Below, piece after piece: positions 52,565 through 55,221 of a stretch of DNA of 64,000 nucleotides. Positions within the stretch are counted from its first letter, which is position 1. Each line of letters opens with the position of its first letter. The notes under the pieces are model-generated. The model worked only from the letters and a program-made list of their open reading frames with translations. It was not told the DNA's origin and did no database searches. This stretch comes from a virus. The stretch covers positions 64,001-128,000 of IMG/VR virus record IMGVR_UViG_3300036832_001373. The stretch is one strand, 5' to 3'. The translations under genes were made by a program, and so were the position numbers.

Positions 52565-52642
52565 AGAAGAGTGGGATAGAGCACAGGGAGATCCGATCCC
52601 ACTCTCCTACCTGAGACGAAACGCCCAAGTTATCGTCTCAAG
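52565..52642 (-). ncRNA. Double-hairpin structured RNA element, copy A
   Basis: TTGAGACGA-loop-TCGTCTCA followed by AGGAGAGTGGGAT-loop-ATCCCACTCTTCT. Confidence 0.6.
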
Positions 52643-52653
52643 GACGTAGTTGG

Positions 52654-53490
52654 TTACTTCTTACCAGTAGGCAGAGGATTCACTACCGGTGCATTAGGAT
52701 CAGTAGGTTTTCCAGGTTCACCAGGACCACCAGGACCCTGTGGAGGATGAGGTTTATCACCCTCTCCCTGAGGGAGCCAAACCCAGCCATAAACCGGACT
52801 CCAAGCCCAGCTACCACCAGGCTTATCTCCAGAAGGACCACTACCTCCAGGAGGAGTCCCACCACCTACTGGTGGGAAGTAGATCGGAGGAGTAGGTCTC
52901 GGATCGGTTGGTCCCCAGATTCCAAGAGGAGGAACACCACCACCTCCTCCAGGAGGATAGTAGATCGGAGGCATTGCTACCGGAGGCCAGCCAGGGATCG
53001 GCTGAGGACCGGGAGGGCTGATGTCAACGTAGGGAGGAAGAAAGATCGGATGGGCAGGTACTCCAGGAGCAATCGCGTCTGGTGGAATCACGATCGGGTG
53101 TGATGGCATCGGAGGAGGAAGTACGATCGGATGGGTAGGTACTCCGGGTGCAAGTCCATCCGGAGGAATCACGATTGGGTGTGCTGGGTGAATCGGGATG
53201 TAGATCGGATGAGTCGGGACTCCCGGTGCAATTGCATCCGGAGGAATTACGATCGGATGGGAAGGTGTAGGAGGATAGTAGATCGGAGGCATCACACTTG
53301 GAGGAGGACCTCCCGGAGCGATAGGATGCGCCGGATAGGGTGGATAATAAATCGGAGGCATCACAGTCGGAGGTGGTCCTCCGGGAGCGATAGGGTGAGC
53401 AGGACCAGGACCACCTGGCATCGGACCACCACCCACACCTAAATCAGTGTAGGTCATTGTACCTATGATAGTAACAGGGATACTTGCCAT
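52654..53490 (-). CDS. Proline-rich repeat protein (PxHPI / MPPIYYPP repeats)
   Basis: Likely start MASIPVTII at 53490 behind a GGGAG SD; very Pro-rich; codon usage resembles the capsid gene. Confidence 0.8.
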   Translation of the reverse strand: MASIPVTIIGTMTYTDLGVGGGPMPGGPGPAHPIAPGGPPPTVMPPIYYPPYPAHPIAPGGPPPSVMPPIYYPPTPSHPIVIPPDAIAPGVPTHPIYIPIHPAHPIVIPPDGLAPGVPTHPIVLPPPMPSHPIVIPPDAIAPGVPAHPIFLPPYVDISPPGPQPIPGWPPVAMPPIYYPPGGGGGVPPLGIWGPTDPRPTPPIYFPPVGGGTPPGGSGPSGDKPGGSWAWSPVYGWVWLPQGEGDKPHPPQGPGGPGEPGKPTDPNAPVVNPLPTGKK

Positions 53491-53600
53491 ATTTGTATTC
53501 TCCCAGTTGTTCTCTCCCATGTTTACAATAACGACAGCCCCGACCTGGGAGAGAATCCAATCGGGACCGCCGCCCTCCATCTAGCCAAAAGCCAGATAAA
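53491..53600 (-). promoter_or_regulatory. Structured 5' leader with a possible pseudoknot involving the RBS
   Basis: 15-bp G-U-rich stem whose loop TTCTCTCCCA is complementary to the downstream TGGGAGAGAA and partly to the SD CTGGGAGA. Confidence 0.5.
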
Positions 53601-53611
53601 GGCTCGGAAGT

Positions 53612-53639
53612 TAGGGAAACTACTCCCTAAAACGTTAAC
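53612..53639 (+). promoter_or_regulatory. Conserved promoter-like motif, copy 2
   Basis: TAGGGAAACTACTCCCTAAAACGTTAAC. Confidence 0.65.
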
Positions 53640-53660
53640 TCTTGAATAGGAGGATTCAAA

Positions 53661-54167
53661 ATGGAATATAGTAAGCATCCCTACTACAAGTACTTTAAGC
53701 ACATGATTGAAAGAGGTAGAAAGTTTGGATCAGACTTTACCTTTGGTAAAGAAGAATTTTATAGATGGTTACCTATCATAGGACCAATACCCGAAGGTAT
53801 GATACGACCTACAGTAGGTAGGTATGACCACTCTAAAGGCTACATATTCGACCAAGAAAATAATAGATGGAATTTTAGGTGGGAAGAATTAAGTGAAAAC
53901 AATCGTGACGGAGGGAAAAGAGGATTTAAGAAACAATTTGAATTAGGAAAGAATCCATTTCAAGATGGAACGGCATCTATATCTTCTGTGGCTAGTCCTA
54001 ATCATGTCAGTAAGACTGGAAAGTCAGGAATGCATACAGGAGCAGCGTGGAGAGCGTCCATTTCTAGTCCGAATCACGTATCAAAACGAGTACTTACTTG
54101 TCCAACTTGTGGTTACACATGTGTGGGTCCACTAGGAATGTGTAGCCACAAGAAAACTCACGAGTAG
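53661..54167 (+). CDS. HNH/His-Me-like free-standing endonuclease with SPNHVSK repeats and zinc finger
   Basis: PTVGRYDHSKGY...NFRWEELSENN resembles the (S/T)IDRIDNSKGY..N.RW....N family; C-terminal CPTC...H...H. Confidence 0.7.
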   Translation: MEYSKHPYYKYFKHMIERGRKFGSDFTFGKEEFYRWLPIIGPIPEGMIRPTVGRYDHSKGYIFDQENNRWNFRWEELSENNRDGGKRGFKKQFELGKNPFQDGTASISSVASPNHVSKTGKSGMHTGAAWRASISSPNHVSKRVLTCPTCGYTCVGPLGMCSHKKTHE

Positions 54168-54217
54168 TTAAACTCCTCCTGTTAGGTAAGGCTCGGAAGA
54201 TAGTATCTAATTGGAGA

Positions 54218-54300
54218 AAGAAGTGGAGCTTTCATTTGCCTGGGTAAGCTCCACCTCCCTACACTACCTAAGTCGCAAGGAGAACACCTAGGTAGTGCAA
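54218..54300 (-). ncRNA. Double-hairpin structured RNA element, copy D (divergent)
   Basis: TTGCACTACCTA-loop-TAGGTAGTG followed by GGGAGGTGGAGCTT-loop-AAGCTCCACTTCTT. Confidence 0.5.
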
Positions 54301-54343
54301 CTATCAACAAAGTATTATATTAAGTTACTATGTACGATCTCTA

Positions 54344-55000
54344 TTATCCCATTACTACCCATCCAATTCCATCCCTATAACCAGCAAAGACTTGGTTTGT
54401 TCCTCCGCCAGCTGTAATAACTTGTCCTTGATTTTTAGTATTTGAGTCTGAAACTGAGGCCATCATTCCAAAAACAGGTGAAGCAGGTAACTGTGCAAAT
54501 GTCATTGGAAGATTATTAATTATACCTACAACACGTATATTAGCTCCAACATTCAAATAACCACCAATACCAACACCTCCAGCTACTACAAGATCACCTG
54601 TAGTGGGTGAAGTTGAAACTGTTCCAACTCCACAATGAACAGTCGCACTATCGAAAGTTAAACTAGGATCACCAGCAAAATTACCTCCATAATTAAACTG
54701 AATAGACCCTCCAGGTGCTCCTGGAGGATTAAATGGTCCAGTAGGTCCAACAGGTCCTAAAGGTCCAGTAGGTCCAGTAGATCCTTGAGGTCCAGTTGGT
54801 CCTCCTGCAGGACCAGTAGCTCCTGGAGGTCCAGATGGTCCAGTAGCTCCAACTGGTCCTTCAACGCCACCAGGTTGAAATATAGCTGCATTCATATCAC
54901 GAAGAAGTGTCTTAAGTTTAAAAACGTCTGTACCACCTAAAATATTAGGTTGTAGACTACCAGTAATATCTGCATCTATATCAGCTTGAGTGATAGCCAC
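54344..55000 (-). CDS. Short collagen-like (capsid?) fibre protein
   Basis: GPT/GAT repeats, [24 protein letters not shown] and the terminal LP..G...VSD...GGG...W module. Confidence 0.75.
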
Positions 55001-55043
55001 TAAACTTACTCCTAAGTTTAGGACAAAGGCTAGGATATTAACG

Positions 55044-55221
55044 AGGAAGGTAGGATAGCGGCTCGCGGATCCTACCTTCCTATTGAGACGAGGAGCTTCG
55101 GGTTCTTCGTCTCAAACTACTAAGAGGTGGAGAGCACTAGCGCCCAGTAAAGACTCTCCACCTCTAGGAGACGAGAAAGCTAGTCCAGGGATGTAACTAG
55201 CTAGGGATGATCTCGTCTCAA
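55044..55221 (-). ncRNA. Double-hairpin structured RNA elements, tandem copies B (55044-55115) and C (55123-55221)
   Basis: Each has TTGAGACGA-loop-TCGTCTC followed by a 12-13 bp purine/pyrimidine stem. Confidence 0.6.

Follow-up and report, generated by a model that had tools for sequence, protein, structure and literature searches.

A family of double-hairpin RNA structures, real, selected and previously undescribed, lies behind the major capsid gene of the phage represented by the IMG/VR virus record IMGVR_UViG_3300036832_001373. The window analysed here comprises bases 64001-128000 (64,000 nucleotides) of this 147.5-kb record, the completeness of which is estimated at ~70%; judged by its sequence, the phage is a distant T4-like phage whose close relatives are all metagenomic and possibly from soil. 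The family is of narrow distribution and falls within the known class of intercistronic stem-loop elements. A variable zone of 3.3 kb, which extends from a palindromic hairpin at 55809-55839 to the gene of an S-adenosylmethionine (SAM)-dependent methyltransferase, contains every element of the family reported here. Four of the units in the window (A, B, C and D) had been described on the minus strand in a first-pass annotation made from the letters of the sequence, and all four are seen when that strand is read; the same annotation overlooked a fifth unit (E), the palindromic hairpin and a group I intron within the capsid gene. The units are tentatively interpreted as cis-acting intercistronic "dumbbell" modules that may act as decay barriers or insulators for late mRNAs, a plausible reading rather than a probable one. 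Structured RNA signals are poorly charted in the late operons of T4-like phages, and in uncultured soil phages they have not been charted at all.

Anatomy of the units and selection on their stems

Each unit is composed of two adjacent hairpins with 0-2 unpaired bases between them, loops of 10-34 nt and tails of mixed pyrimidines (UCUUC, CUCAAC) rather than runs of U. On the minus strand, units A-D fold with energies of -36 to -48 kcal/mol and z values of -4.3 to -6.2 against dinucleotide shuffles. The first stem, UUGAGACGA/UCGUCUCAA, is invariant in three window copies (A, B and D). Unit A (55123-55222, minus strand) has the stem 1 sequence GAGACGAGA/TCTCGTCTC, with the inner arm TAGCTAGT/ACTAGCT, and a 2-nt linker that leads to stem 2, AGAGGTGGAGAGT/GCTCTCCACCTCT, closing the loop CTTTACTGGGCGCTAGT; its score with the covariance model R1 is 55 bits. 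Unit B (55044-55116, minus strand), in tandem with A, pairs TTGAGACGA with TCGTCTCAA and AGGAAGGTAGGAT with ATCCTACCTTCCT, and scores 73.6 bits, while unit D (52565-52643, minus strand; 63 bits) is formed by CTTGAGACGA/TCGTCTCAGG and AGGAGAGTGGGAT/ATCCCACTCTTCT. Unit C (54218-54300, minus strand) keeps the architecture with a different first stem (CACTACCTAGGT/ACTTAGGTAGTG), as had been proposed, and its second stem, GGGAGGTGGAGCT/AGCTCCACTTCTTTC, includes G-U pairs. Both stems are substituted in unit E (53531-53602, minus strand): CCTTTATCTGGC/GCTAGATGGAGGG and GGCGGTCCCGA.../...TCGGGGCTGTC. The signature initially given for the invariant stem, written as TTGAGACGA-N(5-35)-TCGTCTC, matches B and D on the minus strand and has 0 matches in 100 shuffles; it also matches B on the plus strand, because the motif is palindromic there. 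Unit A has the same stem and escapes this pattern, with a spacer of 43 nt between the two boxes. The loops differ in every copy, as the first-pass annotation had pointed out.

The units occupy defined positions between genes. Read along the minus strand, the zone comprises the capsid gene, a terminator-type hairpin, an open reading frame (ORF) on the opposite strand (55284-55802), units A and B, a collagen-like gene, unit C, a second opposite-strand ORF (53661-54167), unit E, a proline-rich (Pro-rich) protein gene, unit D and the methyltransferase gene. [quoted passage not shown] For instance, B lies 45 nt upstream of the GTG start of the collagen-like gene, C lies between the stop codon of that gene and the 3' end of the convergent plus-strand ORF, E is found ~40 nt upstream of the likely start of the Pro-rich gene (ATG 53490), and D begins 12 nt past the Pro-rich stop codon and ends 20 nt short of the methyltransferase ATG. 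Among the 54 gaps between genes that measure 50 nt or more in the 147.5-kb genome, the one that houses A and B (55001-55283) is the most structured.

Related contigs, found by capsid and methyltransferase searches, provide the comparisons from which selection can be judged. These are L004, L005 and L006 (capsid 73, 75 and 74% identical to that of the window phage, respectively), the related capsid contigs L054, L055, L068, L070 and L072, and L112/L113 (methyltransferase 85% identical). Among 19 elements (five in the window and 14 in relatives), 17 are more stable on the capsid-sense strand, and G-U pairs number 71 on the sense strand vs 23 on the antisense strand. Unit C, with six G-U pairs, folds at -42.5 kcal/mol in sense and -29.5 in antisense, and unit E, with nine, at -45.5 and -22.0 kcal/mol. 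The earlier statement that imperfect pairs are G-U on the minus strand holds in this way for A, C and D, and for E as well; it fails for B, which has the better fold on the plus strand. In the six aligned units of the type with TTGAGAC in stem 1, 90.8% of the cells are paired, vs 41-51% when the partners are slid. Both sides have changed in six of the 12 pairs of the purine-rich stem 2, and five of the ten pairs of stem 1 are invariant; these covariation figures lean towards structure, since the alignment was fitted to the structure and has six rows.

The orthologue of unit D in L112 (307-387) differs from the window copy at one of 47 stem and linker bases, a U-to-C change which turns a G.U into a G-C pair, while the loops differ by ~50%. 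At fourfold-degenerate sites of the flanking methyltransferase, glycosyltransferase and Pro-rich genes, 37-41% differ between the window phage and L112. Similarly, the 26 bases of stem 2 are all the same in L004 and L006, whose coding DNA is ~80% identical, and the loop is rewritten. From these comparisons, the stems are constrained in both sequence and pairing and the loops are close to neutral, and some function is certain because the stems are almost unchanged while loops and synonymous sites have diverged by ~40-50%. The proposal of an unrecognised RNA motif selected on the minus-strand RNA is thus borne out by the G-U asymmetry, the covariation of stem 2 and a conservation of the stems far above that of neutral sites.

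The post-capsid array in related phages and the limits of the family

Units of the TTGAGAC type are present in L004 (7773-7858 and 7902-7990), L006 (11271-11362) and L112 (307-387). Stem 1 of unit A is 84.5% identical to L006 11271-11326, and unit C resembles L006 11186-11265. The layout of L006 is the simplest: six hairpins, packed into 324 nt, separate the capsid stop codon from the methyltransferase ATG, with no inserted gene, and this spacer folds at -150 kcal/mol (z = -9.9). The same order (capsid, hairpins, methyltransferase) is found in L055, so that in both contigs the methyltransferase comes after the capsid gene with only a hairpin array between them. In L005, L054, L068, L070 and L072, double or multiple hairpins of unrelated sequence stand directly 3' of the capsid gene. 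Hairpin arrays thus lie behind the capsid gene in many relatives, and the structured post-capsid array is therefore a conserved feature of the clade, of which the TTGAGAC version is, on sequence comparison, the form of one lineage. The nearest relative of the window phage, a contig of 7839 bp, shows identities of 89, 74 and 77% for capsid, collagen-like gene and methyltransferase, respectively, and another contig carries a collagen-like gene that is 99% identical.

Two features of the arrays themselves can be added. In L006 (11327-11462), the array hairpins H2 and H4 have arm sequences in common (GAGGATGGGAT / ATCCCATCC), and because of these common arms the minimum-energy fold of the whole spacer pairs H2 with H4 at long range around H3; this pairing is a possible alternative conformation predicted by the folding model. 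The loop motif YTGGGCG(CT) occurs in post-capsid hairpins whose stems are otherwise unrelated, which account for seven of its 11 sense-strand occurrences in the compared genomes (window 55147 and 52628, L005 11599, L006 11385, L054 2893, L068 1024 and L072 324); it is weakened in the L112 orthologue of D (TTCGGGCC).

The boundaries of insertions and deletions between relatives coincide with the edges of the units. The units border inserted genes: two endonuclease-like ORFs, the collagen-like gene and the Pro-rich gene in the window, and a membrane-protein ORF in a relative. In that relative, L112, an extra ORF for a membrane protein of 117 amino acids is inserted exactly past the last base of the second stem of D, and D keeps the distance of 12 nt from the Pro-rich stop codon that it has in the window, though another gene comes next. 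L004 has an endonuclease where L006 has the hairpins Ha/Hb, and L006 retains 14 nt identical to the 3' end of the L004 endonuclease, inside a 16-nt stretch directly past the capsid stop codon. Within the window, a 12-bp direct repeat, CTTCCGAGCCTT (53599-53610 and 54188-54199, minus strand), brackets the 53661-54167 cassette together with its promoter-like box and runs into unit E, taking in the first bases of the unit. The repeat resembles a target duplication or a recombination scar.

The family is narrow. A covariance model built from six TTGAGAC-type units (88 positions, 22 pairs) gives 48-82 bits to its six units and 55.8 bits to the L112 orthologue found later. No further unit was detected with this model in the remaining 144 kb of the genome, which rules out a genome-wide repeat, and beyond the known units the relatives returned only weak matches of 16-24 bits. 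Homologues of the units do exist in four related metagenomic contigs, and no Rfam family corresponds to them. A scan of IMG/VR for the stem 1 pattern produced 32 loci, about the number expected by chance; all of them score at most 28 bits, vs 48-82 for true members, and were treated as chance palindromes. No match to the units was obtained among GenBank phages (megablast and blastn), nor in 185,579 prokaryote species genomes, one for each species, with an exact and narrow pattern that could miss diverged copies. Among 42 viral contigs with methyltransferase homologues, the element does not accompany that gene outside the close clade. As far as these searches indicate, the double-hairpin family is confined to the variable zone behind the capsid gene and is not a host repeat.

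The resemblance to known RNAs and DNA repeats is equally limited. In Rfam 15 no family reaches its gathering threshold on any unit (only group I introns pass), and under permissive settings (E<=10, positions 52000-56500) the sole match on a unit is ctRNA_pGA1 on E, with 29 bits vs a cutoff of 45. ARAGORN detects no tRNA or tmRNA in the window. No unit is called as an intrinsic terminator, the lone terminator-like call inside a unit being 55171-55155, a 5-pair stem across the junction of the two hairpins of A. The exclusion of tRNAs, U-tailed terminators, CRISPR repeats and known ribozymes by the first-pass annotation agrees with these results. For a CRISPR-like repeat, the stem 1 loop varies too widely (12-34 nt, 12 in L112), the spacing of the units is irregular and the second stems differ. 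An integron attC site was also discarded: there is no Phage_integrase match, and the stem sequence is unlike RYYYAAC/GTTRRRY. Regarding transcription signals, no sigma-70 promoter-like site is present in any unit, and the site count of the region is lower than the shuffled expectation; no convincing late-promoter consensus was found, and CTAG was rejected as a late-promoter signal, being over-represented genome-wide (ratio 1.57). Visual inspection of the units for stop-codon readthrough and for small ORFs revealed nothing conserved. In the ~70%-complete genome, no integrase, Y1 transposase (PF01797), RNase III or double-stranded RNA-binding domain (dsRBD) gene was found.

Possible roles of the units

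From the anatomy of the units, and by analogy with the stabilisers formed by repetitive extragenic palindromic (REP) sequences and bacterial interspersed mosaic elements (BIMEs) and with the processing sites of T7, we infer an effect on RNA decay, processing or insulation. The units, 75-100 nt in length, would be cis-acting modules of the late capsid-sense transcript and form a family specific to this clade. The ancestral layout may have been that of L006, in which the 324-nt six-hairpin array fills the capsid-methyltransferase spacer; in the window phage this spacer would have been broken up by the two endonuclease-like ORFs, the collagen-like gene and the Pro-rich gene, and each late gene in the zone would now be bounded by a dumbbell. 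The stacked hairpins could block 3'-to-5' exonucleases and might also be points at which endonucleases process the RNA. In this manner, the fate and the translation of neighbouring cistrons would be uncoupled, and the highly abundant capsid message and the acquired genes would each keep their own stability. Since the units are short, repeated and located exactly at gene boundaries, they may, as a by-product, mark the points of cassette gain and loss. A role in mRNA processing or stability had already been suggested in the first-pass annotation, and it suits the anatomy: the units take up the gaps between cistrons and are restricted to the variable region 3' of the capsid gene. Should they be portable stabilisers or insulators, this would explain how genes can be acquired into a packed, highly expressed structural operon without disturbing it, and the units would be useful as compact parts for tuning polycistronic expression. 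Like the units, the REP/BIME sequences of enterobacteria are imperfect palindromes, often paired, that lie between cistrons of one operon (e.g., the malE-malF spacer), have a short conserved (G)TAG-like motif beside the stem and are associated with genome plasticity; they stabilise upstream mRNA as cis-acting barriers to 3' exonucleases, as the units would. They differ in that REPs exist as hundreds of copies in the host chromosome with a RAYT transposase, whereas the phage has three to five copies, all of them local, no Y1 transposase (PF01797) was found in its ~70%-complete genome, and the pattern tried gave no copy in the 185,579 prokaryote species genomes; moreover, the two hairpins of a unit are oriented alike, and stem 1 does not vary.

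Several observations weigh against the barrier or insulator interpretation. Unit B folds better on the plus strand (-47.2 vs -36.4 kcal/mol), with a 15-bp stem and a UUCG-type loop. In the survey of 54 gaps, such structures were absent from the rest of the late operon, where most gaps are unremarkable, so the units are not a general device of late mRNAs. A and B have a probable terminator and an antisense ORF upstream of them, which leaves doubt about the transcript that they belong to and about their action as 3' or 5' elements. Above all, seven copies from four phages have the same stem 1 sequence, although nucleotide identity between these phages is only ~70% in the capsid genes and ~60% in the methyltransferase genes, and the stems of D are unchanged even where compensatory changes would be tolerated. 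This invariance points to sequence-specific recognition or to a recent exchange of the element, and, since a plain barrier needs no sequence invariance, it keeps other explanations alive (operator, put-like antiterminator, DNA-level element and small RNA).

Sequence-specific recognition would be accounted for most directly if the units were operators for an RNA-binding protein, of the phage or of the host, which recognises stem 1 and co-regulates, by way of translation or stability, accessory genes for virion decoration (collagen-like fibre, Pro-rich protein and methyltransferase/glycosyltransferase cluster). The invariance of stem 1 despite the 60-70% nucleotide identity of the flanking genes, and the freezing of the D stems without even compensatory change, agree with such operators; so does the ending of the units 20-45 nt before start codons, and there is a precedent in T4, where gp43 and gp32 use upstream hairpin operators (PMC3014915). 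Nonetheless, D precedes another gene in L112 (the 117-aa membrane ORF) and stays fixed to the 3' end of the upstream gene; its remaining with the Pro-rich gene suggests that D belongs to the 3' side of that gene and is not a methyltransferase operator. At equivalent positions, the stems are unrelated in units C and E and in the units of L005, L054, L055 and L068, and no candidate binding protein was identified, with neither a dsRNA-binding domain nor an RNase III gene in the ~70%-complete genome. Operators are therefore regarded as unlikely. We are just as doubtful about a function at the DNA level, in which the units would serve in recombination, as linkers or as hot spots for insertion, in the manner of promoter early stem-loops (PeSLs) or of single-stranded attC-like or REP-like hairpins, and would direct the gain and loss of gene cassettes, or would belong to the target region of homing endonucleases. 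The indels that begin or end exactly at unit edges are what this explanation predicts, as are the 12-bp repeat around the 53661 ORF cassette that includes the first bases of E, the direct repeats formed by A/B and D around a 2.4-kb non-core block, and the endonuclease genes that adjoin units in the window, L004 and L006. PeSLs provide a precedent (PMC2839356, PMC4122927): they are short, repeated, intergenic stem-loop motifs that flank non-core ORFs at indel or replacement boundaries in the hyperplastic regions of T4-like genomes. However, PeSLs consist of a strong sigma-70-type early promoter plus one GGGG...CCCC stem-loop and are found among early genes in many copies, whereas the present units have no sigma-70 promoter, comprise two long-loop hairpins and are restricted to one spacer of the late structural operon. 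The sequence in common is 9-12 nt per arm, split by unrelated loops, a poor substrate for homologous recombination; no integrase or Y1/HUH transposase was found in the genome; the TTGAGAC copies are only three, all local, with none in prokaryote genomes by the narrow pattern used; and the one-strand bias, the many G-U pairs and the covariation fit RNA better than duplex DNA.

Among the explanations at the RNA level, trans-acting small RNAs cut from the late transcript, with a constant two-stem scaffold and variable loops serving as guide, sponge or decoy, would suit the stable compact fold and the constancy of the stems. The units are, besides, located in the 3' region of the late gene with the highest expression, a kind of region that often yields processed small RNAs, and the motif YTGGGCG recurs in post-capsid loops (seven of 11 sense-strand occurrences). 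The loops, nevertheless, drift about neutrally between orthologues while the stems are frozen, which is the reverse of the pattern for a conserved seed. The recurrent motifs YTGGGCG, UCCCUG and CCCAGG were considered as kissing partners or seeds, but their complementarity is only 3-5 bp and they are lost in L112. No promoter or terminator surrounds the units, no Rfam family matches them, the searches of the genome and of public phage and prokaryote collections gave no further copies, and the phage genome showed no convincing complementary target. Roles as guide, decoy or pRNA-like RNA, which had been put forward, are consequently improbable. Cleavage by RNase III, or by a similar double-strand-specific nuclease, is a different matter, as it overlaps the barrier or insulator reading as one possible processing route rather than competing with it. 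With a linker of 0-2 nt, the two hairpins could stack coaxially into a quasi-continuous helix of 22-27 bp. T7 RNase III sites are related to one another in sequence. The units, which are intercistronic too, are likewise sequence-related, and the T7 sites (R0.3 to R18.5) leave a protective 3' hairpin on the upstream message. Yet the T7 sites are single hairpins with an internal loop, distributed genome-wide, while here perfect hairpins are paired in one region, with no internal loop or asymmetric bulge of the T7 type, and no phage RNase III was found; as an explanation in itself, this one is very unlikely. The same low expectation applies to a put-like activity, in which the nascent two-hairpin RNAs would bind the elongating polymerase and confer resistance to pausing and termination through the hairpin-rich zone. 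The put RNA of HK022 is a cis-acting phage RNA of ~70 nt with two directly adjacent stem-loops and more than one sequence-related copy per genome (putL and putR; PMC9378689), and it was set beside the units by architecture alone, not by sequence. A polymerase-binding RNA would be expected to conserve its stems in a sequence-specific manner, and terminator-like hairpins do occur in the same operon. A put RNA also lies between a promoter and the terminators that it suppresses, and it binds the beta' zinc-binding domain of the polymerase. Against a put-like activity, A and B are downstream, not upstream, of the strong post-capsid hairpin, and five units in 3 kb, two of them in tandem, would be needless for a processive modification. 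The put sites are located just downstream of early promoters and are bulged, whereas the units, placed in late intercistronic gaps, are long perfect helices that lack the bulges and the non-canonical pairing found at the put-polymerase interface (PMC9378689). The Rfam searches returned no put-like family, the presence of a put model in Rfam not having been checked. If a protein or the polymerase does recognise the invariant helix, the units would represent a new phage regulatory RNA.

An extension of these ideas, ambitious and improbable, is that the UUGAGACGA/UCGUCUCAA helix, stacked on the purine-rich helix, forms a sequence-specific scaffold that is bound by a polymerase, a nuclease or some other factor and is also the portable end-piece of late-gene cassettes. 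In that case, the same element would insulate expression and set the points of gene exchange between related phages, as a late-operon, RNA-based counterpart of the PeSL or integron cassette systems.

Genes and other structures of the variable zone

The major capsid gene (Gp23 family; 55850-57676, minus strand) opens the region. A Gp23 match was obtained with the ORF 56171-57676 (minus strand), and a prohead protease match with the ORF 57739-59145. The gene consists of exon 1 (56184-57676), an intron (55917-56183) and exon 2 (55850-55916), which ends with the stop codon TAA at 55850-55852. The intron belongs to group I (Rfam RF00028, 72.8 bits at 55954-56204), and the splice junction was placed at 56184/55916 by comparison with the intron-less capsid gene of L004; the capsid gene of L005 has no intron either. 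The intron, of ~267 nt, has no ORF and is located near the 3' end of the gene, exon 2 encoding the last 22 residues only. A perfect palindromic hairpin, AATTGGGGAGGGAG-ATCT-CTCCCTCCCCAATT (55809-55839, -26.7 kcal/mol), stands between the stop codon of the capsid gene and the plus-strand ORF that converges on it; the hairpin is probably a bidirectional terminator and does not belong to the double-hairpin family. Similar hairpins followed by T runs are found directly 3' of the capsid gene in relatives, with GGGAGG stems, loops of 4-5 nt and CTTTT tails.

The two ORFs on the opposite strand appear to be related to homing endonucleases, although neither could be assigned to a family of Pfam or PHROG. 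The first (55284-55802, plus strand, 172 aa) has its own promoter-like box at 55234-55257, and its C-terminal 28 aa match the tail of the NUMOD4/HNH_3 endonuclease of L004. The second is a zinc-finger ORF (53661-54167, plus strand, 168 aa) with a promoter-like box at 53613-53636; it shows 44% identity to L004 10317-10811, the L004 homologue being on the capsid-sense strand. The box, AGGGRAACT-N(8-12)-AACGTT, is specific to the phage and has six copies in the genome (55234-55257 and 53613-53636 on the plus strand and 29934-29957 on the minus strand of the window; genome positions 33796, 143485 and 144189, plus strand), and the reversed control pattern has 0. Its distance from the start codon downstream is ~25-35 nt, both at the two endonuclease-like ORFs of the opposite strand and at a few other genes, and it is probably an early or middle promoter of a type not known.

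A second conserved double hairpin, unrelated to the family, is present in L004 (11986-12050) and L006 (15167-15230), with stem 1 CATGGTAACCT/AGGTTGTCATG and a covarying second stem. It is found at the 5' end of an opposite-strand endonuclease gene, which is of the NUMOD3 type in L006 (the class applies to L006 only), and its first stem overlaps the start codon. A sense-strand double hairpin beside an inverted endonuclease is thus a theme common to A/B and E in the window and to the CATGGTAACCT element of L004 and L006.

The remaining genes of the zone are on the minus strand. The collagen-like (G-X-T) virion fibre gene (54344-55000) has homologues in L004 and L006; because these occupy another genome position, the gene appears to be a relocated cassette here. 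The gene of the Pro-rich protein, with HPIVIPP repeats, extends over 52654-53490, and its 3' end is conserved together with unit D in L112. The SAM-dependent methyltransferase gene (51937-52545) is the conserved gene that closes the zone. A mini-ORF, ATGAATTAA (52546-52554, minus strand), overlaps its ATG, and in L112 the same ATGAAT is the actual methyltransferase start. The start of the window gene, which has no obvious Shine-Dalgarno sequence, seems therefore to have shifted.

Outside the window, short, very G+C-rich and hairpin-dense stretches occur in a genome that otherwise has 41% G+C (145-147.5 kb, ~1-1.5 kb, 4.7 kb and 19 kb), and these could be due to mis-assembly, foreign DNA or another class of repeat. 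Finally, in L068 a small secreted protein rich in His and Asp, with HDRDRDH repeats and a signal peptide, is encoded at 560-965, between the capsid gene and the hairpin array.

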